Assembly (NCBI GenBank): GCA_016936275.1
Contig: JAFGPJ010000114.1
Span: forward strand, 1 to 49,793
Source: Sedimentisphaerales bacterium
GTDB taxonomy: Bacteria > Planctomycetota > Phycisphaerae > Sedimentisphaerales > Anaerobacaceae
DNA: 49,793 bases
Reading direction: 5' to 3'
Shown: in pieces, positions 13,545 through 34,768 of the stretch
Layout of the letters: every line of letters starts with the position of its first letter
How positions within the stretch are numbered: the first letter of the stretch is position 1
The notes under the pieces: model-generated
What the model saw: the letters and a program-made list of their open reading frames with translations, nothing else
The model's database searches: none
Told to the model about the DNA's origin: nothing
Program-made: the position numbers and the translations under genes

Positions 13545-13565
13545 ATTAGTTACACGTTCTCCAGT

Positions 13566-14279: not shown

Positions 14280-14282
14280 AGG

Positions 14283-15668: not shown

Positions 15669-15690
15669 AGATTATTTCCCTTTATTAAAG

Positions 15691-16629: not shown

Positions 16630-16756
16630 AATCTTTCGGCCCTGCCGGAATATAGGTATCTAAATGAAAACAATCATTTTCAATTAATCAGCATTGTCAA
16701 CTAAAATATGGTCGCAAAGATAACTTTGGCCGAGCACTGCATCTCCGTAAATACTG

Positions 16757-17776: not shown

Positions 17777-19626
17777 CGCATGATTTCTCCACGTTCAATT
17801 GTTTTCACTACGGTTTCGGTAAAGGAATTAATCGAAACATATCTTGCAAAAAACTGCTCAAGAACAGAACCAAGCAGAAACACCCCACTTCCCTCAAATG
17901 ATGCTTCGTCGAGAGTTACCGTCACCTCCAGTCCGCGAGCAAATGCTATCGAGCCAGATGTTATAATTCTGCGAGTGGTCGGCCTGCAGCTTATGAACCT
18001 AACGCCGTCAATCTGCTTGCGAGTTTGCAGGTCAGTGGTGCTGCCGTACAGTCGCAAAATATCGCGAAGAGCTGACGCACCCTCGTGCTCATTGGTATTA
18101 GTGAGCGAAAGATAATTCAACGACAAATGATTAATGATACGCCAGGCAGTTTCACCCTCGGCATAAGAGGGTTTGGGCGCCGTTGGAGCTCCCAAACAAC
18201 GAATCGAGGTGTATGGCGCGGTCTTATCCATAGTAAAATCATAGGTCCCCAGTCCAATTGGCATATGGAGGGGCAAATCACGGTTGGTGCACAGAGCTTC
18301 CACGCCCAACTGTTTCAAATCATCGCTATAAGGTGTGCCCGTTGAATCAACAAGAGACAGGTAAACTTCGCTGCCTGCATAAGTCCTCGACCTTCGCCCG
18401 CGAAGCCCCGGTCCCTGTGCCAGAGACCTTGGAACTCGATTTACAACATAATAGCTGCCGGTACTACTGTCTCCCGAGTCCTTTGCGAGGTAAAAAGGGA
18501 GAAACTCCTGCAACTGGTCTGACCGGGCCCCATAACCAACGACCTTCGTAATCTTGTAAACCTCGAAATCCTGCGACCTGGTTCGGTCCGGAATAACATG
18601 AAACTCAGAGAATTTATCTGATACAAGTATGCGGTCCAGCCGCTTCTCAAAAAGGTTTATGGCAGGTGAACAAAATAACCGAAAATTGTCAGCGCTCACC
18701 GCCCCTTCAAGTCCGGCGTTCAACTCTCGAAACAATATAATGATATCCAACTGGTTCTCATTACAGCGCTGGATTGCCCCGCCCAAATCGGCAAGCTCAA
18801 CAAACATAAATCGTTGTGGAAACGCGAAGTATTCATGCAGCAGTCGATATCCCTGAAAAGACCGTGCATCGTAGGGCAGCAGTTTTTGTTTATTCTCAAA
18901 ACCCACACGGTGGATGCACAAAGCGTCGAGTGTCCTCTGCCACTTTATGGGTTTGGTCGCCGGTTGAACCACAATTGACGCGGTGTTAGCAAAGAACTGT
19001 TCGTACAAACGCATCGGGGTCTCACCGACTCCGACAAGGTGCAGGGTCAAAGAATCTATTTTCAACTGGTTGATTGGAAGTCCCGGCGGCGATTGGATTC
19101 GGATTCTTATTCCGGCCTTAACGTCGGGCAGGTTTGGAAGTCCAAGCGATGGCAACTCACGGGTGTAGTAATTTGCCTGGCTCACCTTGATGGGCCAAAG
19201 AGTAACATCGTGAGCGGTTTTATACTCACACTTGGTTTGGTCCGATTCACCCAGAAGACTATGGAGTGAAGAACCACGCGGAATCAGGAAACCATCCGCC
19301 AATCCCTTTTCGTTTAAGTCCGGTTCAAACTGGACGATGCACATAGACGGCGTTGGCGCCAGATAGTGGGAATAGACGGTCTCGAGCAAGGATTGAGTAA
19401 ACCTGGGAAATTCTGCATTGAGTTTGAGTTGCACCCGCGCAGCGAGAAATGCAAAACCTTCAAGCAGGCGTTCAACAAAGGGGTCCTGGCACGGCTGAAA
19501 CTCGTCCAGTCCGCCGAGACGGCCCGCAATTTTGGGGAATTCCTTCGCAAACTCAGCTCCCATTGCGCGTAGATGTGCAAGTTCGGAATTGTACAAATCC
19601 AGCAGCCGTCTATCCACCTGACTCAC
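17740..19626 (-). CDS. tssF: T6SS baseplate protein TssF
   Basis: LLDLYNSELAHLRAMGAEFAKEFPKIAGRLG matches the TssF N-terminal signature (YY..EL.YLRE.G.EFA..HP..A..L). It is 628 aa, with a GTG start overlapping the tssE stop. Confidence 0.9.
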   Translation of the reverse strand: MSQVDRRLLDLYNSELAHLRAMGAEFAKEFPKIAGRLGGLDEFQPCQDPFVERLLEGFAFLAARVQLKLNAEFPRFTQSLLETVYSHYLAPTPSMCIVQFEPDLNEKGLADGFLIPRGSSLHSLLGESDQTKCEYKTAHDVTLWPIKVSQANYYTRELPSLGLPNLPDVKAGIRIRIQSPPGLPINQLKIDSLTLHLVGVGETPMRLYEQFFANTASIVVQPATKPIKWQRTLDALCIHRVGFENKQKLLPYDARSFQGYRLLHEYFAFPQRFMFVELADLGGAIQRCNENQLDIIILFRELNAGLEGAVSADNFRLFCSPAINLFEKRLDRILVSDKFSEFHVIPDRTRSQDFEVYKITKVVGYGARSDQLQEFLPFYLAKDSGDSSTGSYYVVNRVPRSLAQGPGLRGRRSRTYAGSEVYLSLVDSTGTPYSDDLKQLGVEALCTNRDLPLHMPIGLGTYDFTMDKTAPYTSIRCLGAPTAPKPSYAEGETAWRIINHLSLNYLSLTNTNEHEGASALRDILRLYGSTTDLQTRKQIDGVRFISCRPTTRRIITSGSIAFARGLEVTVTLDEASFEGSGVFLLGSVLEQFFARYVSINSFTETVVKTIERGEIMRWAMREGLRSIL

Positions 19627-20131
19627 CCTTCAATTTGTGGTGACCCGTTTCCAAGTCAACTTCTGTCTTAACATAAAGATGGTCCGGCAAGGGTTGCGCC
19701 CACAGTTCGCCTTCTATTTCAAACGAAATAGTACGTATGTATTGCGAATCCAGCGGGGAGATAATGCGAACGGTGAATTGCTTACGTGAAATTCGAGGTT
19801 CAAAATTCAAAATGGCCTGCTTTACCTGTGCTTCAAAATCGCCTGGGTTGACTGCTGAGATAGTTGCACCGCACAAGGCCGGTATGCCGTAATTCAGCAC
19901 CGACCGCACCGCTTCAGTGAATTCGTATATTTCATCACCAAGGGGATGTGCCTTCGAGTTTAAAAGCATCGCCAGGTCACGAAGCACTGCGTTTTTGTAT
20001 CTTCGCAAGGATGTTATACGTTGGTCTCGGCTTTCCTTTTTCACCTCCGGTTCATCGTCAGTGAGGCGGTCAAGCAGGCACGGCTGCAGATGCTCCATTG
20101 GCGCAAGCTCACCCATCGGCTGCCTCACCAC
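19610..20131 (-). CDS. tssE: T6SS baseplate protein TssE (gp25-like)
   Basis: LQPCLLDRLTDDEP is the typical TssE N-terminal motif. Its size (168-173 aa) and its position upstream of tssF both fit. The start is either the GTG at 20131 or the ATG at 20116, and both overlap the tagJ end. Confidence 0.85.
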   Translation of the reverse strand: MVRQPMGELAPMEHLQPCLLDRLTDDEPEVKKESRDQRITSLRRYKNAVLRDLAMLLNSKAHPLGDEIYEFTEAVRSVLNYGIPALCGATISAVNPGDFEAQVKQAILNFEPRISRKQFTVRIISPLDSQYIRTISFEIEGELWAQPLPDHLYVKTEVDLETGHHKLKGESGG

Positions 20132-20936
20132 CTTGTTGTTTTGTTTCCGGGTGATTCAAATCTATCTGTCGTATCTGCAGCAGCGGGAATTCGTCTTTGT
20201 CAGTGGCAAACATGCGCTGTCCGAGGCCAAGGTAAATCTCCCCCGGTCGTTCCAACCATTCGGTTTTGCGTGCGAGTCGAATAGCATTATCTTTGCTGGA
20301 TTCGGAGCCCGGATACCGCGTCGGTATCAGGCCCGCTGTTTCACCGTCATTGACCCACGTGAAATAGGTCGAAATCCAGACCACATCGCGAAGGTCAGCA
20401 GGCGGTTCAATCTTAATCCGCCTGATGGCAGTGAACGGCACCCAATAATACTTGCCGTCAAAAATGGCCTCCAGCATCGGTCCCAGTCGGGTGTCAGCAT
20501 CAGCAATCCAGTCGAAAGCCACACCATTAACAGAACCAGCAATAGATGGGGCCAAGCCAAATGCCTGCTCTCTCAGTTTCTGCGACGCTTTGAATTTCCC
20601 TTCCGCAATCATCTGGTTGGCCTGCACCAATAAGCCAATCCACTCATCCGGCTCGCCAAACACAAGCGGTGAGCGTTTGCCGGCAAAGATTTCAGCCCGC
20701 AGCGCCTCACAATTGATTGCCGCCCGGCAAACCTGAGCCATAAGCAGGTTCATGGCATCAAGCTCCGCTGTGATGTTCAATTGACTTAGGGCCCGTTCCC
20801 AATCGCCCATAGCAGACAACAATTGAAAGAGGAAGACCCTGAGTTTGGCATTGGCCGGGTCGGCACGAACCTGAGCTTCAAGAGCAGTCAATGCATCATC
20901 AAGCCGGCCGGCCTGCAAAAACTCTTCGCTTCGCAT
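20109..20936 (-). CDS. tagJ: TagJ / ImpE-family T6SS accessory protein
   Basis: The TPR-like N-terminus FLQAGRLDDALTALEAQVRADPANAKLRVFLFQLLSAMGDWERALSQL is typical of ImpE/TagJ. It is 275 aa and sits between hcp and tssE, as tagJ1 does in the P. aeruginosa H1-T6SS. Confidence 0.75.
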   Translation of the reverse strand: MRSEEFLQAGRLDDALTALEAQVRADPANAKLRVFLFQLLSAMGDWERALSQLNITAELDAMNLLMAQVCRAAINCEALRAEIFAGKRSPLVFGEPDEWIGLLVQANQMIAEGKFKASQKLREQAFGLAPSIAGSVNGVAFDWIADADTRLGPMLEAIFDGKYYWVPFTAIRRIKIEPPADLRDVVWISTYFTWVNDGETAGLIPTRYPGSESSKDNAIRLARKTEWLERPGEIYLGLGQRMFATDKDEFPLLQIRQIDLNHPETKQQGGEAADG

Positions 20937-21029
20937 AGTATCTACCCCTGTCGCTGGGCACAGTACACCAGCTTCTCCAATCTCGGCGCACGAGCCAGCT
21001 AACCTTAATAACCCGTGAATGTGGCAGTA

Positions 21030-21524
21030 TTAACCACCCTTGTTCTGTTTCGTGTCCCAGTGGGCCTTAACGTCGCCTTTGGGTGCGCCGGTTGCGTGGT
21101 CGGTGAGGGTGTAGATCCATTCGATCTTGCCATAGTTGAAGCTTACACTTTCGACAGGTAGCGCTTCACCGCTTGCCGAGCCGCCTGGCCTAACGCTGCT
21201 GACAATCACATCCGACATCGTAAATTCCATATACTTCGTTTTGTCCTTCGTCGCACGGCACAACTCCACTTGGATTTTCTTGATGTGCTCTCCAGTGCAG
21301 CAAGCCAATGCCAGCTTCGGCGAAGATTTGTCGAGTGCCTTTACAACAGAAAAATCCTGGTGGTCACACCGCTGGGAAGAGGCGGCGCCGCCGCTGCTTC
21401 TCGACCCCGATGACATCTGAGAAAGACCGTGATTGAACGACGATATCTCAATCCAATCTTTATGCTTGTCGTCGGTGCTCTCACCCGGTATTACGTCAAT
21501 TTTCAAAAACGCATCAAAAGCCAT
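21030..21524 (-). CDS. hcp: T6SS inner tube protein Hcp (TssD)
   Basis: MAFDAFLKIDVIPGESTDDKHKDWIEISSFNHGLSQ is the canonical Hcp1-family N-terminus. It is 164 aa, with an aaggaaaggag RBS. Confidence 0.93.
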   Translation of the reverse strand: MAFDAFLKIDVIPGESTDDKHKDWIEISSFNHGLSQMSSGSRSSGGAASSQRCDHQDFSVVKALDKSSPKLALACCTGEHIKKIQVELCRATKDKTKYMEFTMSDVIVSSVRPGGSASGEALPVESVSFNYGKIEWIYTLTDHATGAPKGDVKAHWDTKQNKGG

Positions 21525-21580
21525 TTTATCAACTCCTTTCCTTAATAAATAACCAACTCACTTTCCATTCTTAATTTTTC

Positions 21581-21603
21581 TAACAAAAACGCCTTCAGGC
21601 GTT
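21581..21603 (-). terminator. Weak intrinsic terminator/attenuator hairpin between tssC and hcp
   Basis: The minus strand reads aacgcc-tgaa-ggcgtt followed by tttgtta (T-tract TTTTTGTT including the last stem bases). It is located in the 111-nt tssC-hcp gap. The stem is only 6 bp. Confidence 0.35.
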
Positions 21604-21635
21604 CCATTCATGTTAGGCATAGCAACTAATCAATA

Positions 21636-23138
21636 TTAACTACCACTCTTGACCGAAGGCAGCTTGGATACCAGTCGCAGCGATACAGAAAGACCTTCGA
21701 GCTGGTAATGAGGTCTGAGGTAAAACTTGGCCGAGTAATAGCCAGGGTCTCCTTCCACCTCGTCAACTACAACTTCTGCCGCCGCCAGAGGATACTGGGC
21801 TTTAGTTTCCTCTGAGGCGTGCGGGTCGATTGTAACATATTTTGTTATCCATTTATTGAGCCATGTCGCCATATCCTCGCGCTCTTTGAAAGAGCCAATC
21901 TTATCCCGCACGAGGCACTTGAGGTAATGTGCGAACCGGCACGTTGCGAAAAGATACGGCAGCCTCGCCGCCAGATTTGCATTTGCGGTCGCATCGGGGT
22001 CGTCATATTCGGCCGGATTTTGCAGCGACTGTGCACCAATAAAACATGCAAAATCTTCGTTCTTCCAGTGCGATAGGGGCATCATGCCGTTTTTGGCTAA
22101 TTCCGCTTCTCTTCTGTCTGTTATACCAATCTCTGTCGGGCATTTCATATCAACACCGCCGTCATCGGTTGGGAAAGTATGGCAGGGAAGCCCTTCAACT
22201 AATCCGCCGCTCTCAACTCCGCGGATATTCGCACACCACCCAAACTGCTTAAACGAACGGTTGATATTCACTCCCATTGCATACGCCGCGTTGGTCCAGA
22301 GATATTTTGAATGGTCGCCTGCCGCCGTTTCTTCCTCAAAATCAAATTCTTCGCAGGGATTTGTCTTGGCGCCGTAAGGCAGTCTGCCGAGAAACCTTGG
22401 CATTGTTAAACCAACGTACCTGGCATCATCGGATTCACGCAGAGAACGCCACGGCGCATAGTCGGCCGTCTGGAAAATCTTCGTCAGGTCACGAGGATTG
22501 CTGAGCTCCTGCCAGGAATCCATGTTCATCAATGAAGGAGCGGCTGCGCTAATAAACGGCGAATGAGCTGCTGCCGCAATCTGGGCCACTCCGCCAAGTA
22601 TCTCAACATCCGGAGGACTATGGTCAAAATAGTAGTCACCGACGAGACAGCCGTATGGTTCACCGCCCGGCGAGCCGTATTCCTCCTCGTAGAGCTTTTT
22701 GAAAAGCGGGCTTTGGTCCCAGGCAGTGCCTTTGTACTTCTTTATCGTCTTTGCCAAATCGTTCTTGCTGATATCAAGCACACGTATCTTCAGTGTTTCG
22801 TCCGTTTCAGTGTTGTTTACCATATAATGCAGACCTCGCCATGAGCCCTCAAGCGCCTGGAAATCCTCGTGATGCATTATCATATTAATCTGTTCGGACA
22901 ACTTGCGGTCTATCTCGGCAATAATCGCCTCGATTGTCGTGACTGCATCTTCGGAAACGAGTGATGTCTCCGCCAGGGCCTGCTCAGCCAGGGTTCGCAC
23001 CGCCAAGCTAATGGTCTCCTTGACATGTTCCGATTTAGGCTTAAACTCCTTCTTAAGGAGCGACTCGAACTCATTCGGCTGTATGGCTACCCCCTCAGCA
23101 CCGGCGGCCTGTCTTTGTTGTTCTTGATTTTCAACCAT
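21636..23138 (-). CDS. tssC: T6SS contractile sheath large subunit TssC (VipB)
   Basis: 500 aa, with HHEDFQALEGSWRGLHYMV, MPRFLGRLPYG, YLWTNAAYAMG and the C-terminal YYSAKFYLRPHYQLEGLSVSLRLVSKLP, all typical of VipB/TssC. The start overlaps the tssB stop. Confidence 0.95.
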   Translation of the reverse strand: MVENQEQQRQAAGAEGVAIQPNEFESLLKKEFKPKSEHVKETISLAVRTLAEQALAETSLVSEDAVTTIEAIIAEIDRKLSEQINMIMHHEDFQALEGSWRGLHYMVNNTETDETLKIRVLDISKNDLAKTIKKYKGTAWDQSPLFKKLYEEEYGSPGGEPYGCLVGDYYFDHSPPDVEILGGVAQIAAAAHSPFISAAAPSLMNMDSWQELSNPRDLTKIFQTADYAPWRSLRESDDARYVGLTMPRFLGRLPYGAKTNPCEEFDFEEETAAGDHSKYLWTNAAYAMGVNINRSFKQFGWCANIRGVESGGLVEGLPCHTFPTDDGGVDMKCPTEIGITDRREAELAKNGMMPLSHWKNEDFACFIGAQSLQNPAEYDDPDATANANLAARLPYLFATCRFAHYLKCLVRDKIGSFKEREDMATWLNKWITKYVTIDPHASEETKAQYPLAAAEVVVDEVEGDPGYYSAKFYLRPHYQLEGLSVSLRLVSKLPSVKSGS

Positions 23139-23670
23139 TGGACTTCACCTCCTTACCGCCCTCGGCGGATTCAGCTCCTGGTTTCGGCGCAGAGGTCAGG
23201 GCCGTCAGTAATGCCTTGTCTTTGAGGACCTTGGCCATCAGTTCCTCCGCACCACTTTTACCATCCATATACGACAACAAATTTGAAAGATCCGTCCGAG
23301 CCTTCAACAGCTTGTTCAAAGCATCAACCTTACGCGCTACCGCCGCCGGGGAAAAATCATCCATGCTCTCAAACGTGATGTCAACGCTCATATTGCCCTC
23401 GCCGGTTAATGCGTTCGGGACCTGGAATGCTACTCTCGGCTTCATTGCTTTGAGTCGTTCGTCGAAATTGTCGACGTCGATTCCGAGGAATTTTCGGTCT
23501 GCAACCGACGGCAAGGCCTCGGCCGGCTTGCCGGACAAATCGGCCATCACGCCCATCACGAAGGGCAGATTGACCGTTTTCTCTGCGCCGTACAGTTCCA
23601 AATCATACTCTATCTGCACACGCGGTGCTCGGTTGCGAGCTATGAATTTTTGACTGCTTTTTTTCGCCAT
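23131..23670 (-). CDS. tssB: T6SS contractile sheath small subunit TssB (VipA)
   Basis: IARNRAPRVQIEYDLELYGAEKTVNLPFVMGVMADLSG is the canonical TssB N-terminus. It is 179 aa. Confidence 0.95.
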   Translation of the reverse strand: MAKKSSQKFIARNRAPRVQIEYDLELYGAEKTVNLPFVMGVMADLSGKPAEALPSVADRKFLGIDVDNFDERLKAMKPRVAFQVPNALTGEGNMSVDITFESMDDFSPAAVARKVDALNKLLKARTDLSNLLSYMDGKSGAEELMAKVLKDKALLTALTSAPKPGAESAEGGKEVKSNG

Positions 23671-23744
23671 GTTCTTTCCCCTTTCTCAAAAATATTATAA
23701 GCACCGATGACTGTTCACATCCATAAACCTGCCAATTCCTGTCT

Positions 23745-24818
23745 CTAAACCGGCTGTCCGGTATCAGAATCCGTTTTTTTAATCCCGCCAATGGCCTCAA
23801 CCTGATTCATGGCATCCGGGCAAAAATCCTCAATGACCTCCACGAAAGTTCTCGAAACCAATCTTTGCGCCCTTCGCAGAAGCAGAGGCACCGGACTGGA
23901 AGGCTCCTGCCGCTCGAAATAATTACATATCTTCTCCATGGCCAAAATGGCTTCTTTGGGAGACCCAATCTCACCTGCCAATGACATTTTTGCGCCTCCT
24001 TCCCCGGCATCCACTGCTCCGCCCTGCTCTGTATTCATACCTGCGGCACCTTTAGCCAGGTGTCCCTGAACATACTTGTGGATATTCCCCAGAAGCGTCT
24101 GTAAACCACTAAAGTTGGGGCTCTGCCCTTTGGAAGCACGTTCCGAAAACACCTTCTCTATGGCGGTGACATGCCCAATGGCCTCTTCGGTGGCCTGTGA
24201 TGCTGCCTGCAGATGCTCAGCCGGGGTATCTTGAAAAGCCGCATCAATTACCGACATCTTAGGTGCATTTGCCTGCTGGTCGCCCGAAACCGTAATCTCT
24301 CCCTTTGCAATCTGGATATCTCTGAGACCGAATTTGCCCATCTTTGGCGAGTTGCACAGTGGGACTTCCAGAAGTCGCTGCCTGAACTTCATCGGGTCCT
24401 GAACACTGACGGTGGCCGGAGACAACGACTGCAGAATATTTATTCGCTCAAGTGGGTCGTAATCATCATCCACGTCAAGTTGAGGGTAAAGTTTGTCCCA
24501 GAAACGCTCCAGCAGCTCGCGCAGCAGAAGCAATCCATCGCGCAGGCCGGGAATACCATCGAGTTTAAGGAGTGCAAGTGTAAGATATATTGCGATTCTG
24601 AGGTCTTTCGAACGTTTCAACAATTCGAAGCTTTTTTCGCTAACTTCCCGCCAGTTCGGCTCCTCCGCAACTTCCTCTTTGCCCAAGACGCTGCCCGTCG
24701 GCTTTTTTTGAACCATGCGTTCGAGAGCAAGATAAGACTGGTCGTATGAGAGGTCTTCACCACAAGGAGACTCAGCGCTCACCTCGGTTAACAGGTTTTG
24801 GATATCAATCTTGGCCAT
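23745..24818 (-). CDS. tssA: T6SS protein TssA (ImpA N-terminal domain, short TssA1 type)
   Basis: VSAESPCGEDLSYDQSYLALE matches the ImpA_N signature (P.G.DL.YD..F..L). It is 357 aa and is the first gene of the minus-strand operon. Confidence 0.85.
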   Translation of the reverse strand: MAKIDIQNLLTEVSAESPCGEDLSYDQSYLALERMVQKKPTGSVLGKEEVAEEPNWREVSEKSFELLKRSKDLRIAIYLTLALLKLDGIPGLRDGLLLLRELLERFWDKLYPQLDVDDDYDPLERINILQSLSPATVSVQDPMKFRQRLLEVPLCNSPKMGKFGLRDIQIAKGEITVSGDQQANAPKMSVIDAAFQDTPAEHLQAASQATEEAIGHVTAIEKVFSERASKGQSPNFSGLQTLLGNIHKYVQGHLAKGAAGMNTEQGGAVDAGEGGAKMSLAGEIGSPKEAILAMEKICNYFERQEPSSPVPLLLRRAQRLVSRTFVEVIEDFCPDAMNQVEAIGGIKKTDSDTGQPV

Positions 24819-25300: not shown

Positions 25301-25328
25301 TTGACATACATTCGCCCCCGGCGAGAAT
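25301..25328 (+). promoter_or_regulatory. Weak sigma70-type promoter candidate for the DUF4157 gene (TTGACA-16-GAGAAT)
   Basis: ttgaca at 25301-25306, a 16-nt spacer, and gagaat at 25323-25328. It lies about 130 nt upstream of the ATG at 25460. Confidence 0.3.
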
Positions 25329-25459
25329 GTAAGTGCCAGTGCGACTACTGTGCCTCGAGGAAGCATCTATTCGAGATGGTGCAAATCACATTGGCGTCTG
25401 CTGGTGGTTAAAAATAGTCCTAATTTGTTTCTAAACTTCCTAAATTTGGAGGCAAAGTC

Positions 25460-26536
25460 ATGACAAGTCACTATAATTTGTGTTTGTTCTGGGTATTGGA
25501 ACCGCTGGTTCAGTGGCAGAATATGCCTGAAGAAGCTCGGATAAAGCCGGACATCAAGCCGGTGGGGCCTGAGGGCGGGCGAGTTCCCCCAGAAGTGGAG
25601 TCCGCCATTGAACGGGCCTGTGGCGGTGGCCAGCATCTGGAAGGCGCCCTGCAGGAGCAGATGATGGCGAGTTTGAGCTACGATTTCAGTGATGTGCGTA
25701 TCCATACGGGTCCCGAAGCGGACGAGATTTCCCGCCGGTTGACTGCGAAGTCCTTTACGGTAGGTAGGGATATATTCTTCGCGCAAGGCGCATATGACCC
25801 CGCCTCCATTAGCGGTAGGGAGTTGATAGCCCACGAACTAATCCATGTGGTGCAGCAGGACTCCGGTCGATTAACGGAGCCGGGAACAGGAATGAAGGTA
25901 AGTTCAACAGCAGACGCCCTGGAGTATGAGGCCGAGGCCCTGGCCCCTATCGTGGCCAGGACCGGAAGAGCAGTGGGGATGCCGTGCGTTCAATTCTCGC
26001 TCAGCGAGGGGGCCGTAGTACATCGAGCACTGGCGGATCGCGTGGGAAATATCCCGGACGGATTTTGGAATATTGGAATACAGCAGCTTCGTCCGGCTTG
26101 CCTTCCTTCAGTGATATACTGGGTGCTCCACGAAATTTATGGTTATGCACCCCCTACCAATATTGCCCAAAATACCGCCGTCAAAAGCCAGGAACTGTTC
26201 AATTTGATGCTGAAAAAAGCGATTCAGAAACATCGGCCTGTTGCCGGCGACCTCGTTCTCACAAGAGGGTCGATACTGGCGTTCCAGATCGGGAAACAAA
26301 CCGCACACGCCGGCGTAGCAACTCAAACAACAATCGTCAGTGGGTACAATCAATATGGGTGGTTCAAACCTATATTAGAGGCACCATGTACTTTCAGTGC
26401 CCGGTATACAGAAGACCTTGACTGGGTGCAGAATACCAGTCAAGTCAAAAGCGCAAACAATGATTCCGCCTTCTTGTATGAAATCCCCGAAGCCGCCGCA
26501 AGGGGAATCGTGGCTGCGCGAATTACATATAAGTGA
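25460..26536 (+). CDS. DUF4157 (zincin-like HExxH) domain protein with an uncharacterised ~180-aa C-terminal domain; candidate secreted cargo/toxin
   Basis: A ggagg RBS lies 7 nt before the ATG. LSYDFSDVRIHTGPEADEISRRLTAKSFTVGRDIFFAQGAYDPASISGRELIAHELIHVVQQ is the characteristic DUF4157 core, including HELIH (nt 25832-25846) and the trailing VVQQ. The protein has no signal peptide and no TM helix. Confidence 0.8.
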   Translation: MTSHYNLCLFWVLEPLVQWQNMPEEARIKPDIKPVGPEGGRVPPEVESAIERACGGGQHLEGALQEQMMASLSYDFSDVRIHTGPEADEISRRLTAKSFTVGRDIFFAQGAYDPASISGRELIAHELIHVVQQDSGRLTEPGTGMKVSSTADALEYEAEALAPIVARTGRAVGMPCVQFSLSEGAVVHRALADRVGNIPDGFWNIGIQQLRPACLPSVIYWVLHEIYGYAPPTNIAQNTAVKSQELFNLMLKKAIQKHRPVAGDLVLTRGSILAFQIGKQTAHAGVATQTTIVSGYNQYGWFKPILEAPCTFSARYTEDLDWVQNTSQVKSANNDSAFLYEIPEAAARGIVAARITYK

Positions 26537-26703: not shown

Positions 26704-26732
26704 TTGCGTTCGTCAAATGAATGGACTATTCT
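26704..26732 (+). promoter_or_regulatory. Sigma70-type promoter candidate for the methyltransferase gene (TTGCGT-17-TATTCT)
   Basis: ttgcgt at 26704-26709, a 17-nt spacer, and tattct at 26727-26732. If real, it argues for the ATG at 26773 rather than the TTG at 26692 as the start. Confidence 0.3.
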
Positions 26733-26772
26733 CACAGCAAATCGATTCTATATCGGTTCATTCATAATAACT

Positions 26773-28338
26773 ATGGCAAAAAACTATAAAGATAAATCGC
26801 GAGCCAAGATTGCAGCACAAACCCAAAACACAAAAGTTTTTTGTCTGGACAGGCGGTTCGACGTCAAGACGTTCAAAAGGGTAATTGAGGACGCGGGCTA
26901 CTGTGAAAAGGCGCTGGCCGAGACGCTGGGTATATCGTGTGTTCATGAACGGCAAGACGTGGATGTGGTCTATAGGCGCGTAAAAACAGACAGCCCATAT
27001 AATATCCTTGTGCGGTTATTCTGGCTCGGACTATCGGTCCCGGAGTCCATTGCTCGTAAGTCCTTGTCAGGGCTTGACATAGAGGACCTTGAAGCAATCG
27101 GCCTACTAAACCGGCACAACGGCAAAATAAGGTCTGTTGCCAGATTGGCGCCATATCATGACCTGATGCTGGCAAGCGATTTCGGACCGGAAATCCACCG
27201 CAAGCTCTCTGCAGACCACGTTCTTGGCGTAGGCGCAGCTTCCGTAACGCTGGCTAATTTAACTGTTCGCCGAAATGTTAAAATCGCTCTTGATATCGGC
27301 AGCGGCGCAGGCATACAGTCATTCCTTGCTGCACGCCACGCCGAGCATGTCGTCGGAACGGATATCAGCCAGCGGGCGATAAACTTTGCCAGATTCAATG
27401 CAATGCTGAATGACATCAGCGGTATTGAATGGCGCCAAGGCGGTCTCTACGAACCCGTCGCCGGTCAACAATTTGACCTGATTGTATCTAATCCTCCGTT
27501 TGTGATTTCCCCGGAGTCACGATTCGTCTTCCGCGACGCCGGTATGCCGGGCGATGCCATCTCAGAACAAGTAATCCGCGGGGCCGGTGAGTGGCTGAAT
27601 GCAGGCGGTTTTGCCTGTATATTGTTTAACTGGCATCACTCCGATGATACGGATTGGGATGCTCGGCCCCGTAGCTGGGTATCCAGGACCGGCTGCGATG
27701 CCTGGATGATAAGCTTCAAGTCCGCAGACCCATTGACGTATGCGGCTGAATGGCTGGGAAGCTGTGTCGGACGGAGTCAACCCGAGTATGGGAGCCGTCT
27801 GGATGAATGGATGGCGTATTACGAAAAGATGCAAATCGGGCGCATAAGCGCCGGCGCAATTATTATGCGAAAGAGACCTAATAGTTCAAACTGGTTCCAA
27901 GCACACGTTATAGACAGAGGTCGCTGTACAGGACCCGCGGCTGACCAGATTGAGCGAATATTCGCGGCTGAAGATATGCTTGAGACGCTCGACGACCGAC
28001 AGTTGCTGCAGCAGCGTCTCGCTTTCGCCAATAACCATCGTCTGGAACATCAGTTGGTGGTTGAGGACGGCCGATGGGTCATCCGTGCCGAACACCTCTA
28101 CGCCGTTAATGGCATCCCATTTGCCGGCAACGTGGATATGTATATCGCGAACCTTCTGGCCGGCTGCAACGGCAAATGGACATTAGGCGAGGTTGTCGGG
28201 AAAGCGGCCGAGCGGATACAGACCAATCGGGAAGAATTCACGCGTGCCTGTCTGGCCGCCGTCCGCAAGCTTATGCAGTCAGGATTCCTGAGTCCAGTCT
28301 CAAATCCCTGCACGTCGGTCAACCAAAAGAGTAAGTAA
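26773..28338 (+). CDS. Large class I SAM-dependent methyltransferase (NPPF-type; substrate unknown)
   Basis: Motif I is LDIGSGAGIQSFLAA. Motif IV is DLIVSNPPFV, an N-methyltransferase-type (D/N)PP(F/Y) motif as in the PrmC/RsmC/N6-adenine MTase classes. There are long N- and C-terminal extensions and no signal peptide. The start is uncertain: ATG at 26773 versus the track TTG at 26692. Confidence 0.72.
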   Translation: MAKNYKDKSRAKIAAQTQNTKVFCLDRRFDVKTFKRVIEDAGYCEKALAETLGISCVHERQDVDVVYRRVKTDSPYNILVRLFWLGLSVPESIARKSLSGLDIEDLEAIGLLNRHNGKIRSVARLAPYHDLMLASDFGPEIHRKLSADHVLGVGAASVTLANLTVRRNVKIALDIGSGAGIQSFLAARHAEHVVGTDISQRAINFARFNAMLNDISGIEWRQGGLYEPVAGQQFDLIVSNPPFVISPESRFVFRDAGMPGDAISEQVIRGAGEWLNAGGFACILFNWHHSDDTDWDARPRSWVSRTGCDAWMISFKSADPLTYAAEWLGSCVGRSQPEYGSRLDEWMAYYEKMQIGRISAGAIIMRKRPNSSNWFQAHVIDRGRCTGPAADQIERIFAAEDMLETLDDRQLLQQRLAFANNHRLEHQLVVEDGRWVIRAEHLYAVNGIPFAGNVDMYIANLLAGCNGKWTLGEVVGKAAERIQTNREEFTRACLAAVRKLMQSGFLSPVSNPCTSVNQKSK

Positions 28339-28458: not shown

Positions 28459-29469
28459 TCATGGAATTTGCAACACAACGCCGGGAAGAATAAAGTCCGG
28501 GTTATTGCCGATAACGCCATAATTTTTAAGATAGATTACATCCCAATAGCCCTCGCTACCATAGAATATTTTAGATATGCCGGAAAGCGTATCACCCGGC
28601 GCAACGGTGTGTGGGCCCGGCGGCCGGAGACGTTTAACGCCGCAAAGCGGGTCTTCCTCTGAACCGCCAAGGGCTTGGTGGTCGGCCTTTTTGTCAAGCA
28701 ATTTCTTGAAATTTTCTTTAGTGGGCGTGCTGCGAAATGTTTTTTCGCTTTTATCTTTCAATATCCCGTTACATTCAACCGCCGCGTCCATTCCTTCTTT
28801 TTCTTCTTCTTCATCGCCGCCCAACAACTGCACTGATGCAATATCGCCGACAAGACCGCGAAGCGCCTTTTCGGAAGGATTCTTCCTGGCCCATTCTTTG
28901 GACCGTTTTAACATCTCGACGGCTGCTGCCCTTGCCGCTTCCAACCAAGATTGGGCGCCGGTTTCGTCCTCGCCCTTTAGCAGCTTTTGCTCAGCTTCAC
29001 GCAGCGCCTTTCTTATATCCTCTTTTGTTGGTTTAACAACAACAGCAGGAGGTTGTGGTTTTGGTGGAACAGGCGGCCGGGAAGTCATCCCCGTCGGCCC
29101 GCGAGGTACTCCCTGCTCAGGTCCGCCAGAAGACAATGAGGGACGTTTGGGGCCCTCCAAAAGTTCCTGTTTATTCGAATCCGCAGAGAGTCTCTCGAAC
29201 TCGAGTTTGGCAATAATATAATTTTTGAAGGCCTCGAGATAATCCTGGACCACCATTTTTTTTGAAAAATTGTCGATAAACTTTATATCCGGTGCTGTGG
29301 CGTTCATCGGGCGATATGAGTTCGAAGGTGCAAGCTGCTCGTCATAGTTCTGCATTGCTGCTCGTGCTTCCTCAAGCTGATTTTTTGCTAAAATGTAGCG
29401 CTTTTCGGCCAGTTGAACGCGTAGTTTCGGTGATGCATTATGCCACGTTTCGTTATAGTATGTAGCCAT
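28459..29469 (-). CDS. Leaderless coiled-coil / Pro-rich protein with a C-terminal LysM peptidoglycan-binding domain
   Basis: The C-terminal HTVAPGDTLSGISKIFYGSEGYWDVIYLKNYGVIGNNPDFILPGVVLQIP fits the LysM consensus (Y.V..GDTL..IA...YG....W..I...N......I.PGQ.L.IP). There is a Pro-rich linker, RPPVPPKPQPPAVVVKP. The N-terminus (MATYYNETWHNASPKLRV...) shows no signal peptide or TM helix. Confidence 0.8.
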   Translation of the reverse strand: MATYYNETWHNASPKLRVQLAEKRYILAKNQLEEARAAMQNYDEQLAPSNSYRPMNATAPDIKFIDNFSKKMVVQDYLEAFKNYIIAKLEFERLSADSNKQELLEGPKRPSLSSGGPEQGVPRGPTGMTSRPPVPPKPQPPAVVVKPTKEDIRKALREAEQKLLKGEDETGAQSWLEAARAAAVEMLKRSKEWARKNPSEKALRGLVGDIASVQLLGGDEEEEKEGMDAAVECNGILKDKSEKTFRSTPTKENFKKLLDKKADHQALGGSEEDPLCGVKRLRPPGPHTVAPGDTLSGISKIFYGSEGYWDVIYLKNYGVIGNNPDFILPGVVLQIP

Positions 29470-29766: not shown

Positions 29767-32553
29767 ATGGCTGAAATCACACGCACATCTTTATTCGGCA
29801 AGCTAAACAGTTTAGGTTACAAGGCCATCGAAAGCGCCACGATTTTCTGCAAAATGCGGGGTAATCCGTACGTGGAGCTGGTGCACTGGCTGCACCAGAT
29901 TCTGCATCAGCAGGACTCAGACCTTCACCGTATAATACGGCACTTCGGCATAGACCCCTCCCGGCTCGCCAAGGATATGACAGAGGAATTGGACCGGCTG
30001 CCGAGGGGAGCGACGTCGATTTCGGACCTGTCGAGCCATCTGGAAGAGGCAGTCGAACGAGGGTGGGTTTACGGGAGCTTGTTATTCGGTGAATCACAGA
30101 TTCGCACAGGGCATCTGATAGTGGGCACCCTCAAGACAAGCGGCCTCAAGAACGTTCTTCTGCGGATATCGAAGGAGTTCGACAAAATCAAACTGGAACA
30201 GTTAACCGACGATTTCGCAAAAATTGTGGGGGGTTCTCCCGAGGAATCCCTGTCTGCGACCGACGGCACTTCGCTGCGAGCCGAGGGCGAAGCCGCCGGC
30301 GGCACCTCTGAAATGGCGCCAGCGGCAATGGGCAAACAAGAGGCATTGGCGAAATTTTCTGTGGACCTGACTGCAAAGGCACGAAGCGGTGAAATGGACC
30401 CTATTGTCGGTCGCGACGTGGAAATCCGCCAGATTATCGATATTCTGATGCGTCGTCGTCAGAACAACCCGATACTTACCGGCGAGGCGGGGGTCGGGAA
30501 AACGGCAGTGGTTGAGGGTTTCGCACAGCGGATTGCCGCCGGTGATGTGCCGCCGTCGCTAAAGGACGTAACACTACGTGTGCTCGATGTAGGGCTGCTT
30601 CAGGCCGGGGCCAGTATGAAGGGCGAATTTGAAAATCGGCTTCGACAAGTCATAGAAGAGGTTCAAAGCTCACCTAAACCAATTATTCTTTTCATAGATG
30701 AAGCACATACTCTTATTGGGGCCGGAGGTTCTGCGGGGACCGGCGACGCCGCCAACTTGCTTAAGCCGGCGCTGGCTCGCGGCACATTGCGGACGATTGC
30801 GGCCACCACCTGGGCGGAGTATAAAAAATACATCGAGAAAGACCCGGCGCTTACCCGCAGATTCCAGGTAGTCAAGGTTGAAGAGCCCTCGGAAGGTAAC
30901 GCTTTGATTATGATGCGAGCAGTGGCCTCTAACTTAGAGAAGCATCACCTCGTCCAGGTACTGGACGAGGCCCTCGATGCAGCGGTCCGTCTTTCGCACC
31001 GGTATATCCCTGAGCGTCAACTGCCGGACAAAGCGGTTAGCTTGACCGATACCGCATGTGCCAGGGTTGCCATAAGCCAGCATGCCGTCCCGCCAGAGCT
31101 GGAGGACTGCCGGCGTCGAATTCAGGCGCTTGAAACGGAGCTGGAAATCATTGGCAGAGAAACGTCAATGGGAATGGACCACCGTTCCCGCGAATCCGAA
31201 AACACAGAGAAACTCGAAACGGAACACAAAAGATTAGCCGAACTGGAAGGTCGCTGGTCAAAAGAAAAGGAGCTGGTCAATGCTGTCCTGGATATTCGGG
31301 CCAGGTTGCGCAAAACCGGCGGGGGCACTGTCGAAAAGACAGAGATTGCCGGAAAAGAATCTGAGAAAACCAAGGACCGTGCCAAGGACGTGCGTCAGGC
31401 CGATGCAAGTCAGCCGGCTGAGGTCGCAGCCGCAGGTTCAGCCGACGCGGAGGAAAAAGAGGACAGAGAAGGATTACTCAAACAACTCATTTCGCTGCAG
31501 AAACAGCTCAGGGAGCTGCAAGGAGAAAGGCCACTGATTCTTCCCTGTGTTGATGCAGTAGCGGTTGGTTCAGTGGTTGCCGATTGGACCGGGATTCCGG
31601 TCGGGGGAATGGTAAAGAATGATATCGAGGCGGTTCTGCATCTGGAGGACAAGCTTCGGCAGCGTGTAATAGGCCAGGACCATGCCCTGGCGGCAGTTGC
31701 CAAACGCATCAGAACATCCCGTGCCGGCGTGGAGAATCCGAACAAGCCGATTGCTGTGATGTTCCTGGTCGGTCCGAGCGGCGTGGGAAAAACCGAGACG
31801 GCGATTGCCTTGGCCGAAGCCCTGTACGGCGGTGAGAGCAACCTGATAACCATCAATATGAGTGAGTTCCAGGAAGCCCACACGGTTTCAACACTTAAGG
31901 GTTCGCCTCCCGGGTACGTCGGCTATGGCGAAGGAGGCGTCCTGACCGAGGCGGTGCGTCGGCGCCCTTATAGCATTGTTTTGTTAGACGAAGTCGAGAA
32001 GGCGCATCGCGACGTCCACGAGATATTTTTCCAGGTGTTCGACAAAGGCCGGATGGAAGACGCCGAAGGACGCCTGATAGATTTCAAGAATACAATTATT
32101 CTGCTGACCAGCAACGTCGGCACCGACCTCATTATGGAGATGTTCAAAGACCCGAAGCTGAGGCCTGATTCTGAAGGGATATGTAAGGCCCTCCGCAAGC
32201 CCCTGCTTAAGGTCTTTCCCGCCGCCCTTCTCGGTCGTCTCGTTGTCGTGCCCTACTACCCAATTAGTGATGAAACGATGCGGCTCATTATTCGCCTCCA
32301 GTTGAACCGAATTGGGCGTCGGACCAGGGAGAATCATAAGATACCGTTCAGCTTCGATGATAAAGTCGTGGAGCTTATTGCCAGCCGTTGCACTGAGCTC
32401 GAAAGCGGAGCTCGGATGGTGGACGCCATTCTGACCAATACGCTGCTTCCGGAAATCAGCCAGGAGCTCCTGACCCGGCTGATGGAAGGTAAAATCGCTA
32501 AACGCGTGCATATAGGGACCAAAGACAGCGAGTTTACTTATTCGTTCGACTAA
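29767..32553 (+). CDS. clpV: T6SS AAA+ sheath-recycling ATPase ClpV (TssH)
   Basis: 928 aa with a Clp N-domain. Two AAA+ modules carry Walker A motifs GEAGVGKTA and GPSGVGKTE, and Walker B motifs ILFIDEAH and IVLLDEVEKAH. A coiled-coil middle insert is present. It lies directly upstream of vgrG. Confidence 0.93.
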   Translation: MAEITRTSLFGKLNSLGYKAIESATIFCKMRGNPYVELVHWLHQILHQQDSDLHRIIRHFGIDPSRLAKDMTEELDRLPRGATSISDLSSHLEEAVERGWVYGSLLFGESQIRTGHLIVGTLKTSGLKNVLLRISKEFDKIKLEQLTDDFAKIVGGSPEESLSATDGTSLRAEGEAAGGTSEMAPAAMGKQEALAKFSVDLTAKARSGEMDPIVGRDVEIRQIIDILMRRRQNNPILTGEAGVGKTAVVEGFAQRIAAGDVPPSLKDVTLRVLDVGLLQAGASMKGEFENRLRQVIEEVQSSPKPIILFIDEAHTLIGAGGSAGTGDAANLLKPALARGTLRTIAATTWAEYKKYIEKDPALTRRFQVVKVEEPSEGNALIMMRAVASNLEKHHLVQVLDEALDAAVRLSHRYIPERQLPDKAVSLTDTACARVAISQHAVPPELEDCRRRIQALETELEIIGRETSMGMDHRSRESENTEKLETEHKRLAELEGRWSKEKELVNAVLDIRARLRKTGGGTVEKTEIAGKESEKTKDRAKDVRQADASQPAEVAAAGSADAEEKEDREGLLKQLISLQKQLRELQGERPLILPCVDAVAVGSVVADWTGIPVGGMVKNDIEAVLHLEDKLRQRVIGQDHALAAVAKRIRTSRAGVENPNKPIAVMFLVGPSGVGKTETAIALAEALYGGESNLITINMSEFQEAHTVSTLKGSPPGYVGYGEGGVLTEAVRRRPYSIVLLDEVEKAHRDVHEIFFQVFDKGRMEDAEGRLIDFKNTIILLTSNVGTDLIMEMFKDPKLRPDSEGICKALRKPLLKVFPAALLGRLVVVPYYPISDETMRLIIRLQLNRIGRRTRENHKIPFSFDDKVVELIASRCTELESGARMVDAILTNTLLPEISQELLTRLMEGKIAKRVHIGTKDSEFTYSFD

Positions 32554-32598
32554 TACCTGTGATATTAATTCAAGGAATACGTTTAAAGAACATGGCTG

Positions 32599-32627
32599 TT
32601 GAAAACAGGCGGCTTTCCGCGTAAGAT
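32599..32627 (+). promoter_or_regulatory. Possible internal promoter for vgrG (TTGAAA-17-TAAGAT)
   Basis: ttgaaa at 32599-32604, a 17-nt spacer, and taagat at 32622-32627, located in the 98-nt clpV-vgrG gap. The implied leader is very short. Confidence 0.3.
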
Positions 32628-32651
32628 GAAGTTTATTAGGCGTTAATCCCA

Positions 32652-34742
32652 ATGGCAATAACTCAGGAAAACAGGGAGATTGCGATAGCGACCCCTTTAG
32701 GGGATGACGTTCTTTTGCTTAAAAGCATTTCGGGCACAGAGCAGCTTGGCAGGCCATTTGAGTTTCATCTTGAACTGGCCAGCGAGGATAACCAGATTAA
32801 ACCTCAGGACATTGTCGGCCAGAACGTGACAATCCGGCTCAACCTTTTCGAAAAAGACAAGATTCGCTATTTCAACGGCTATATCAGCCGATTTGTCCAG
32901 ACGGCCGGGGCCGGCCGATTGGCAGGATACCGCGCAACCGTCGTGCCATGGCTGTGGTTTTTGACCCGAACCGCTGATTGTCGTATATTCCAGAAAATGA
33001 CGGTTCCCGATATTATCAAGCAGGTTTTTCGAGACCTTGGATTTACCGATATTGAGGACGCCCTCAGCAGCAGCTATCGAACCTGGGAGTATTGCGTTCA
33101 ATACCGCGAGACGGACTTCAACTTTGTCAGCCGACTTATGGAGCAGGAGGGAATATATTACTTTTTCAAGCACGAGAACGGCAAACACTCGCTGGTCCTG
33201 GCCGATTCGGCCAGCGCGCATCAGCCATATCCCGATTATGACCAAATCAAATACCGGCCCCACGGCAGTCAGGTCGATAACGACAAGTGCATTTCCGACT
33301 GGATAGTTGAAACCTGTGTTCAGCCCGGTTCGTATGCCCTGAAGGATTTTGACTTCAAGAACACTAAAAAGGACCTCCAGTCAAGGGCGAACTTGATTCA
33401 ACAACACGCCGCGGCGGACTTCGAGATATACGATTACCCCGGCGAATACACCGAATCCCCTGACGGCGACGAATATGCCAAGAAACGTATCGAGGAGATG
33501 CACACGCAGTATGAGGTGGCCACGGCCGATTCCGAAGCCAGGGGCATTAGTGCCGGCTGCACGTTCAACTTCATCGAGCATCCCCGCGACGACCAGAACA
33601 AGCAATACCTTATTACCTCTGCAAGCTATAATATAGACGCCGGCGACTTCTACTCGCAGGAAAAAGGCGGCGCCTGTGCCTATTCGTGCAGCTTTGCTGC
33701 TATCGATGCAACGCAGCAGTTCCGTTCAATGCGCATCACTCCCAAACCCTCAATTCCAGGCCCACAAACGGCTATGGTTGTCGGTCCATCGGGTGAAGAG
33801 GTCCACACCGACGAATATGGCCGGGTCAAGGTGCAATTCCACTGGGACAGGCACGGTAAAGCCGACGAAAACAGCTCCTGCTGGATTAGGGTGGCGCAGG
33901 TCTGGGCCGGCAAGAAATGGGGCGCGATGTATATCCCGCGAATCGGCCAGGAGGTTATTGTTGAGTTCCTCGAGGGCGACCCGGACCAGCCGATTATTAC
34001 GGGCCGGGTCTATAACGCCCAGGCAATGCCGCCTTACGACCTGCCGACCAATAAGACGATGTCAACGCTCAAATCCGACTCCAGCAAGGGCAGCGGGGGC
34101 TTCAACGAAATCCGCTTCGAGGACAAAAAGGGTGATGAGCAAATCTTCATACACGCCGAAAAAAACGAGGATATCAGGGTCAAAAACGACTGTCTCGAAT
34201 GGATTGGAAATGAGCGGCATTTGATAGTTAAAAAAGACCAGCTCGAACAAGTCGATGGCGATAAGCACCTGACGGTCAAGGGAGACCAGAACGAAAAGAT
34301 AAACGGAACCATATCCGTTGAGGCGGGTATGGATATGCAGCAGAAGGTTGGTATGAAGCACGCCCTTGATGCAGGGATGGAGATTCACCTAAAGGGCGGA
34401 ATGAAGGTAATTGTCGAAGCCGGAATGCAGCTAACGCTCAAAGGAGCTGGTGGCTTTGTTGATATCGGCCCAGCAGGCGTAACGATACAAGGCAACCTAG
34501 TGAATATAAATAGCGGCGGCGCTGCTGGCGCCGGCTCGGGCTGCTCGCCTGATGCCGCCAAGGCCCCGAAAGAAGCCGATAAAGCCGACCCGGGCGAAAA
34601 GCTTGAGCCGGCAAAACCGCCCAAACCGCCAACGCCCGTTACTTTCAGCCCGCAGGCGACAACTATGCAACAGGCGGCTAAGGACGGCACACCATTTTGT
34701 GAGGAATGTGAAAAGGCAAAGAAACAACAGCAAGCCGGTTAA
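32652..34742 (+). CDS. vgrG: T6SS spike protein VgrG (TssI) with a Lys/Pro-rich C-terminal tail
   Basis: IATPLGDDVLLLKSISGTEQLGRPFEFHLELAS is the gp27-like N-terminus. Also present are GRVKVQFHWDR and WIRVAQVWAGKKWGAMYIPRIGQEVIVEFLEGDPDQPIITGRVYN (the gp5 OB-fold signature), followed by beta-helix repeats. The tail is APKEADKADPGEKLEPAKPPKPPTPV...GTPFCEECEKAKKQQQAG. Confidence 0.93.
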   Translation: MAITQENREIAIATPLGDDVLLLKSISGTEQLGRPFEFHLELASEDNQIKPQDIVGQNVTIRLNLFEKDKIRYFNGYISRFVQTAGAGRLAGYRATVVPWLWFLTRTADCRIFQKMTVPDIIKQVFRDLGFTDIEDALSSSYRTWEYCVQYRETDFNFVSRLMEQEGIYYFFKHENGKHSLVLADSASAHQPYPDYDQIKYRPHGSQVDNDKCISDWIVETCVQPGSYALKDFDFKNTKKDLQSRANLIQQHAAADFEIYDYPGEYTESPDGDEYAKKRIEEMHTQYEVATADSEARGISAGCTFNFIEHPRDDQNKQYLITSASYNIDAGDFYSQEKGGACAYSCSFAAIDATQQFRSMRITPKPSIPGPQTAMVVGPSGEEVHTDEYGRVKVQFHWDRHGKADENSSCWIRVAQVWAGKKWGAMYIPRIGQEVIVEFLEGDPDQPIITGRVYNAQAMPPYDLPTNKTMSTLKSDSSKGSGGFNEIRFEDKKGDEQIFIHAEKNEDIRVKNDCLEWIGNERHLIVKKDQLEQVDGDKHLTVKGDQNEKINGTISVEAGMDMQQKVGMKHALDAGMEIHLKGGMKVIVEAGMQLTLKGAGGFVDIGPAGVTIQGNLVNINSGGAAGAGSGCSPDAAKAPKEADKADPGEKLEPAKPPKPPTPVTFSPQATTMQQAAKDGTPFCEECEKAKKQQQAG

Positions 34743-34768
34743 TAAGTTAGTTGGTCGGAAAGAATTTG

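Follow-up and report, generated by a model that had tools for sequence, protein, structure and literature searches.

A DUF4157 protein with a papain-like C-terminal domain in a type VI secretion locus of a Sedimentisphaerales bacterium: a possible effector built like contractile-injection-system cargo

Our analysis concerns a single gene in a Sedimentisphaerales bacterium (assembly GCA_016936275.1, contig JAFGPJ010000114.1). The window, by which we mean the whole stretch of DNA that was analysed, spans 49,793 nucleotides. The gene (25460..26536, + strand, ATG start) encodes a protein of 358 residues, in which a DUF4157 domain is followed by a C-terminal domain of papain-like fold, and it lies within a locus for a canonical type VI secretion system (T6SS). 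We give a probability of roughly 0.5 to the reading that this DUF4157-papain protein is a T6SS-associated effector built on the cargo plan of contractile injection systems (CISs). Our data show its domain composition, its conserved catalytic-type residues, its fold class, its conserved T6SS linkage and the fast divergence of the presumed payload; that it is secreted and toxic, what it acts on and what DUF4157 does are inferred.

The T6SS linkage extends well beyond the window. A tblastn survey covered 170 loci, and loci in which DUF4157 is fused to the papain-like domain were counted only if they had at least 6 kb of flank (n=10: the window, L002–L007, L087, L092 and L098; L003–L005 and L092 are near-identical, and the assembly of L001 duplicates the window). 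Canonical T6SS genes are present at all ten fusion loci, genes of extracellular contractile injection systems (eCISs) at none. At the other DUF4157 loci it is the reverse: eCIS genes were found in about 40 of 80 genome-derived and 27 of 80 metagenome-derived loci, T6SS genes in none of them. The fusion loci come from Aegiribacteria-like and Desulfobacteraceae metagenome-assembled genomes (MAGs). This coherent subfamily of short-leader DUF4157 proteins, strictly linked to canonical T6SSs in two uncultured lineages, is new. An earlier note on this DNA had suggested surveying whether DUF4157 genes keep company with T6SS or with eCIS genes, and for the fusion gene the T6SS linkage does prove to be conserved.

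Gene order is conserved as well. In L003–L005 and L092, as in the window, the fusion gene diverges from tssA and is followed by a methyltransferase gene on the same strand, a LysM-like gene on the opposite strand and then clpV; L002 ends after the methyltransferase. L006 belongs to Candidatus Aegiribacteria (FCB group). In L007, a Desulfobacteraceae MAG, a homologue of 430 residues lies between clpV and vgrG, about 2 kb upstream of vgrG, and both the methyltransferase and the LysM protein are absent. Two further T6SS-linked fusion loci are L098 and L087, in the latter of which the gene sits among hcp, PAAR-like and DUF2169 genes.

One could argue that the gene codes for eCIS cargo and merely happens to lie among T6SS genes, or that it is a hitch-hiker there and encodes a cytoplasmic enzyme unrelated to the machine. 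After all, Geller et al. (2021, PMC8213781) found a strong enrichment of DUF4157 in eCIS loci, many of the other DUF4157 loci in our survey do carry eCIS genes, and one homologue, P0014, whose N-terminal module is 61% identical to that of our protein, has two further DUF4157 genes as neighbours in a textbook eCIS locus. Nevertheless, neither Pfam on all large open reading frames (ORFs) nor tblastn with eCIS queries finds an eCIS gene in the window, the informative fusion loci fall entirely on the T6SS side, and the long N-terminal extension with which eCIS cargo is loaded is absent. Synteny that is conserved across two phyla also argues against chance hitch-hiking. We consider this explanation highly improbable. 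What P0014 does tell us is that the N-terminal module is used beside both types of machine, since its locus is a true eCIS locus.

The two halves of the protein evolve at very different rates. Between the window and the Aegiribacteria-type loci the T6SS core proteins are overall 64–90% identical, with TssC, TssB, ClpV and TssF at 80–90% and TssA at 67%. For the methyltransferase the value is about 70%, for the LysM-like protein 59% and for the DUF4157 core 68–72%. For the C-terminal domain the median identity is 26% (16–30%). A domain that diverges this fast and keeps only its catalytic-type residues shows a pattern characteristic of effectors. The cysteine and the histidine that the earlier note had picked out as a possible papain-like pair, C214 and H283, are indeed both invariant in 22 full-length homologues, even though the C-terminal domains of these are about 26% identical. 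Some C-terminal variants are longer (P0012, P0015–18, L007 and others), and an hhalign comparison with the short ones shows homology (probability 95.8%, E 7e-9). Therefore, we are dealing with a fixed two-domain architecture and not with a polymorphic toxin with swapped tips. Unrelated C-termini are found only in relatives with long leaders of the eCIS type (P0032, P0035), for which the leader length suggests eCIS linkage.

The C-terminal domain has so far escaped annotation. Its 181 residues have no match in Pfam, NCBIfam, PHROGs, PADLOC or a PDB sequence search, and the same is true if the linker is included (residues 137–358). Searching with the full-length protein gave 69 homologues, 22 of which span both halves. 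In the alignment of these 22 sequences the invariant C-terminal columns are R189, L191, C214, W221, G270 and H283. In an alignment of 39 domain sequences W221, H283 and G295 are invariant, and C214, G270, N297, Q298 and W301 are conserved in at least 90%. With the C-terminal half alone a word-indexed search came back empty, and with the 39-sequence profile it gave one protein only, whereas exhaustive HMMER with the domain recovered 44 cluster representatives, most of them, about 40, stand-alone proteins of 160–180 residues that consist of the domain only and that likewise lack a Pfam match. T6SS effectors carried by Hcp, for example TecA and the Tae amidases, are typically of this size. Within 1.8 billion representative proteins the family makes up some 45 clusters when grouped at 50% identity. 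It is a new, unannotated papain-fold family with stand-alone and DUF4157-fused forms.

That the fold is papain-like is supported by a structural model. A single-sequence AlphaFold2 (AF2) prediction of the full-length protein reached a pLDDT of 34 and was discarded; a model of the C-terminal domain predicted from the domain alignment has a pLDDT of 87.2 and a pTM of 0.84. In this model C214 starts a helix (37–50 in domain numbering), H283 lies in a strand (103–112) and Q298 just past the next strand, a Cys-His layout of papain type that is read from secondary-structure positions and not from a Cys-His distance. Foldseek against the PDB puts TecA (7pzt), a T6SS asparagine deamidase of Burkholderia/Alcaligenes, at the top (probability 0.98, TM score 0.47–0.52, E 0.08). 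NlpC/P60 proteins come next (4xcm, Spr 2k1g, MepS and the Acd autolysins, probability 0.3–0.7), and NlpC/P60 and CHAP matches have TM scores of 0.25–0.37. Against a viral library the matches are mainly CHAP and NlpC/P60 lysins. Matches to cyclic-nucleotide-binding domains (root-mean-square deviation >11 Å, probability <=0.25) were set aside as noise, as were PDB sequence and profile matches to designed proteins, antibody light chains, SdeA and HACE1.

TecA is an instructive comparison. Its nucleophile, C41, occupies a position in the domain similar to that of C214, and the 7pzt chain, with 160 residues, is similar in size to our stand-alone homologues. We take TecA to have a papain-type fold in which the catalytic histidine is spaced much as in our protein. 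The toxin is delivered by a T6SS and has no immunity gene. However, TecA is not fused to DUF4157 and has no detectable sequence similarity to our protein. Profile searches give no sequence match to 7pzt; equivalents of its cysteine and histidine are present, and no equivalent of its aspartate was identified. The third catalytic residue also seems to differ: in TecA it is a distal Asp, in our protein it is probably an Asn or Gln shortly after the His.

The weaker structural matches lead to a different explanation, namely that the domain cleaves peptidoglycan, as an amidase or endopeptidase of the NlpC/P60-CHAP type, and serves either as a Tae-like periplasmic effector or as a sacculus opener similar to TagX or MltE. 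NlpC/P60 and CHAP enzymes dominate these matches. Like our domain, these hydrolases, the Tae amidases of T6SSs among them, have a cysteine that begins a helix and has an aromatic residue after it. They also share its fold class and a motif in which a strand of GD and hydrophobic residues is followed by a turn and a strand with the histidine. This GD-LVLF...H motif can be aligned with Spr and MepS: the domain profile places the invariant histidine on that of their GDLVLF...RHVGIY strand, presumably the catalytic one, at an E of about 1. A conserved neighbour that resembles a peptidoglycan-binding LysM protein would suit such an enzyme, too. Still, the hidden Markov models (HMMs) of NlpC/P60 (PF00877) and CHAP (PF05257) do not match our protein even at E up to 10, the CHAP model picks up one of 21 family members (E 0.11), and the best structural match is a deamidase. 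Tae-type effectors are normally accompanied by a periplasmic immunity gene, and none was found. Neither our protein, on sequence inspection only, nor the LysM-like protein has a signal peptide, and transmembrane segments are missing as well, which speaks against remodelling of the producer's own wall. A peptidoglycan hydrolase thus appears improbable to us. The earlier note had read the domain as papain-like and as similar to NlpC/P60 or CHAP, and had suggested Foldseek as a check; the papain-like part holds on residue conservation, the AF2 model and structural matches that are all weak and led by the TecA toxin, but membership in NlpC/P60 or CHAP is not supported.

The N-terminal half is much easier to classify. 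The DUF4157 domain (residues 60–136, 25637..25867) matches PF13699, which Pfam now calls 'eCIS core domain', with 96.9 bits against a cut-off of 22 (E 8e-28, profile positions 2–78 of 79). The earlier note was right about the family and slightly off in its limits, which it had put at residues ~45–133. The HExxH motif (25832–25846) reads H125-E126-L-I-H129. H125, E126 and H129 are invariant in the 22 homologues, and so is E155 in the ExEA motif of the adjoining linker (residues 137–177, 25868..25990), where A158 is invariant, too. E155 follows 26 residues past HExxH, which we take to make it a candidate third zinc ligand of the gluzincin type. With HExxH and an invariant downstream Glu, the module looks like a complete zinc metallopeptidase.

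The leader in front of this module (residues 1–59, 25460..25636) is short and partly conserved. The alignment shows a conserved GPEGG...GGGQ stretch, including an R-G-G-G-Q-P-L motif in which GGGQ corresponds to residues 55–58 (nt 25622–25633). G55 and G57 are invariant, and in roughly one homologue in four the Gln gives way to K, H or A. GGGQ resembles the GGQ of release factors that is methylated by PrmC, and a neighbouring gene product is HemK-like; this may be a coincidence. In T6SS-linked proteins HExxH lies 110–125 residues from the start, compared to a median of 195 (range 115–650) in eCIS-linked proteins (Mann-Whitney p about 8e-7, with some of the loci close relatives and with starts approximated by the first ATG). 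The leader of our protein is about 70 residues shorter than in eCIS-associated DUF4157 toxins, and the long N-terminal extension of eCIS cargo is missing, as judged from leader length and not from computed disorder. In AlgoCIS it is such a long disordered N-terminal region that serves as the signal for loading, a process that does not require DUF4157 (bioRxiv 10.64898/2026.05.27.728243). Set beside the short leaders, this suggests that the T6SS-linked subfamily has apparently lost or replaced the eCIS loading signal.

If the protein is an effector, the short conserved leader and the DUF4157 module may handle, process or mask the payload. The papain-fold domain would be the active payload, with a centre formed by Cys214, His283 and Asn297 or Gln298, and would attack a substrate in the target cell, be it as amidase, deamidase or protease. 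The lack of an immunity gene would be explained if the domain hydrolysed amides on a non-self target in the manner of TecA, or if DUF4157 masked the payload. Masking by DUF4157 is a speculation of Geller et al. (2021, PMC8213781).

Such an arrangement has precedents. DUF4157 proteins are loaded as cargo in AlgoCIS (Cgo1 and Cgo2; bioRxiv 10.64898/2026.05.27.728243), and they have the same module order as our protein: leader, DUF4157 with HExxH and C-terminal effector domain. The cores are closely related, as the comparison with P0014 shows. eCIS toxins differ in that they are encoded in eCIS loci and have long leaders and diverse C-terminal toxins, whereas our protein combines a T6SS locus with a short leader and one C-terminal family. 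In haloarchaea five DUF4157 proteins are secreted by a cell-anchored CIS in a sheath-dependent manner (Sci Adv 2024, PMC11566945). There, too, the DUF4157 genes lie in and around the locus of a cell-anchored contractile system. That system is archaeal and CIS-derived, not a canonical TssA-M machine, and several of the toxic members have downstream immunity partners.

DUF4157 is no stranger to the T6SS either, contrary to the earlier note, which did not recall it as linked to this system. Wood et al. (2019, PMC6899460) describe T6SS clusters that encode DUF4157 metallopeptidases, some fused to VgrG, some to PAAR and some as cargo. The domain is 'sometimes present in T6SS effectors' (Danov et al. 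2024), and a metagenome survey from 2025 lists it as a characteristic toxin domain 'in eCIS and T6SSs'. Like our protein, VgrG2b and its relatives are DUF4157/HExxH proteins of T6SS clusters, and a free-standing cargo form exists (PMC6899460). In VgrG2b, however, DUF4157 is C-terminal, is itself the toxin and has an immunity partner, whereas in our protein it stands in front of another catalytic-type domain, and an immunity gene is not seen. Solved structures, that of VgrG2b included, give no sequence match to our protein. The notion of a module shared by eCISs and T6SSs, which the earlier note had put forward, is borne out by P0014 but is not new: that DUF4157 cargo is common to both machines is already a general idea in the literature.

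A number of observations weigh against an effector. No immunity-like ORF follows the fusion gene in any locus examined, L007 included; in the window, the 167-nt gap to the methyltransferase gene contains no fitting ORF of at least 20 residues. Effectors aimed at eukaryotes, TecA among them, have no immunity gene either. With a single C-terminal superfamily in the T6SS-linked group and no immunity genes, the subfamily lacks the marks of a polymorphic toxin, and its fixed architecture and fixed position next to tssA would sooner be expected of an accessory gene. Within the window, neither vgrG nor a PAAR or adaptor gene adjoins the fusion gene, and the vgrG-DUF4123 island about 6 kb downstream holds candidate effectors of its own. 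The stand-alone homologues of the C-terminal domain sit in unrelated housekeeping contexts. The H-S-C motif that is near-invariant in the family, with a second Cys two past the His, is H-A-G in our protein (26306–26314). Finally, all structural matches are weak (E 0.03–0.3, none <=0.001). We therefore accept the fold class, but not membership in the NlpC/P60, CHAP or TecA families, and the chemistry cannot be assigned. Among the small ORFs that follow stand-alone homologues, which we considered as immunity genes, that of 81 residues in L088 is a CMD/AhpD-like fragment and the neighbour of P0115 is on the opposite strand; we rejected them.

These observations raise the question whether the protein, with its two peptidase-like domains, instead stays in the producer cell, as part of an accessory module that, together with the methyltransferase or methyltransferases and the LysM-like protein, processes T6SS components or substrates or modifies them post-translationally. 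The missing immunity gene and the lack of swapped, unrelated toxins would fit this, and so would a position between tssA and clpV that is fixed in several assemblies beside two well conserved neighbours. The methyltransferase adjoins the fusion gene even in L087, where gene order is rearranged and its identity has dropped to 32%, and in L098 the fusion gene has a further methyltransferase, PrmA-like, beside it. The N-terminal module, moreover, is 58% identical between phyla and so equals the best T6SS core proteins in conservation. What is hard to fit with action on conserved machine parts is a C-terminal domain that diverges so much faster than a core machinery at 80–90% identity. At L007 the fusion gene occurs without the methyltransferase and without the LysM protein. 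The DUF4157 proteins with experimental precedent are all cargo or toxins, and we know of no described T6SS accessory family that contains the domain. All in all, an accessory module strikes us as unlikely, although as the main alternative it deserves to be taken seriously.

Under either reading the methyltransferase is the most intriguing neighbour. It has 544 residues (26704..28338, + strand), the Pfam and NCBIfam architecture DUF7059-MTS-DUF7782 and an NPPF motif. Its best NCBIfam matches are N5-glutamine methyltransferases of the HemK/PrmC type, and its PDB relatives are GenN (an aminoglycoside N-methyltransferase and the best match), RsmC and HemK. The gap that separates it from the fusion gene contains no terminator-like site, and the two genes are probably co-transcribed. 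A DUF7059-MTS-DUF7782 gene for 500–545 residues accompanies the fusion gene in eight of the ten T6SS-linked loci (the window, L002–L005, L087 at 8421–9920, L092, and L098 at 2841–4358), and it was never found at eCIS-linked DUF4157 loci. The literature that we searched makes no mention of DUF7059 or DUF7782, and a conserved methyltransferase partner of the T6SS-linked DUF4157 subfamily is new. In L098 the PrmA/Methyltransf_16-like gene (259 residues, 1887–2666, + strand) separates the DUF4157-papain homologue from the DUF7059 methyltransferase.

The LysM-like protein (336 residues, 28459..29469, - strand) has a helical N-terminal part, which a Pro-rich linker connects to a weak C-terminal LysM match (E 8e-4, below the Pfam cut-off). 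Its 59% identical copies occupy the same place in L003–L005 and L092. LysM proteins are typical of the baseplates of eCISs and phage tails and would be odd for a canonical T6SS.

It is tempting to see the DUF4157-papain protein and the N-methyltransferase as a functional pair, though we regard this as a distinctly doubtful proposal. In one version, the papain-fold domain would be a Gln/Asn deamidase similar to TecA, Cif or CNF, and the methyltransferase would methylate the same amide in the target and thereby protect the producer. This would amount to immunity by target modification, without an immunity protein that binds the effector. In the other version, the methyltransferase would modify the effector itself, for example at the GGGQ motif.

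The gene itself is well defined. The ORF, its lack of a signal peptide and its divergence from tssA are as the earlier note had described them, and a second, independent short-read assembly (SRR13394437) yields an identical copy of the protein. A Shine-Dalgarno sequence, GGAGG (25448..25452), lies 7 nt 5' of the ATG. The spacer to tssA measures 641 bp and holds one promoter-like match per strand, a sigma-70-like TTGACA-16-GAGAAT towards the fusion gene (25301..25328, + strand) and a partner facing tssA (25128–25100, - strand); both are consensus matches only, and their number is not above shuffle expectation. The C-terminal domain, supported by the AF2 model, Foldseek, conservation and the stand-alone homologues, covers residues 178–358 (25991..26533, ~20 kDa). 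Its candidate catalytic residues are C214 at 26099–26101 and H283 at 26306–26308, in agreement with the positions given in the earlier note, and N297/Q298 at 26348–26353.

The T6SS of the window is complete and canonical. Pfam places its core on the opposite strand (9225..24818, - strand), transcribed divergently from the fusion gene, in the order tssM, tssL, tssK, a gene for an unknown protein of 312 residues, tssG, tssF, tssE, tagJ, hcp, tssC, tssB and tssA. clpV, vgrG and a DUF4123 adaptor gene follow on the + strand (29767..35317). The earlier note had thus located the gene correctly in a T6SS locus between tssA and clpV, but it does not adjoin clpV, since the methyltransferase and LysM-like genes intervene. 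The 312-residue ORF between tssK and tssG (15691–16629, - strand) has no Pfam or NCBIfam match and is 56–61% identical to ORFs at the same place in L002–L005. It could be a divergent TssJ, because no tssJ was recognised in the window, or another accessory protein. The TssM homologue (9225–13544, - strand) is unusually long, with 1439 residues, of which only the IcmF-related N-terminal domain was recognised.

Three ORFs of 251, 315 and 266 residues without family matches, apart from a weak HEAT match in the last, follow vgrG and the DUF4123 gene (35332–37714, + strand). As candidates for the effector cargo of the locus and its immunity partners they are the more conventional choice. The second and third overlap by about 150 nt, and one start is probably mis-called. 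Further downstream, a protein of 521 residues (38187–39752, - strand) combines a partial VipA/TssB match with the N-terminal domain of VipB/TssC and lacks VipB_2. This fused sheath-like gene is additional to the normal tssB and tssC, and a 45% identical copy directly follows the DUF4157 gene in L007 (11324–12991, + strand). Other large genes in the window encode a protein of 1465 residues with a C-terminal FGE-sulfatase domain (42665–47062, + strand) and one of 848 residues with DUF5122 beta-propeller repeats (1378–3924, + strand). Outside the window, the survey also turned up an eCIS locus, L086 (GCA_034415575.1, contig DAOULW010000070, 7744–16203), with three consecutive DUF4157 genes of 440, 609 and 609 residues, followed on the opposite strand by an RVT_1 reverse-transcriptase gene. 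It may be a retroelement that diversifies the cargo genes.

What do these results mean for DUF4157 proteins and the machines that carry them? A module best known from eCISs is also found in canonical T6SS loci of uncultured bacteria of the FCB group and Desulfobacterota. The shorter leader in the T6SS setting is a natural experiment on the determinants of loading in each machine and on the role of DUF4157. The unannotated papain-fold family supplies clear catalytic candidates. That an immunity gene is lacking and a methyltransferase is conserved suggests either a target that is not bacterial or an unusual form of self-protection. If true, either version of the pairing with the methyltransferase would be a new logic for the self-protection or maturation of T6SS effectors.

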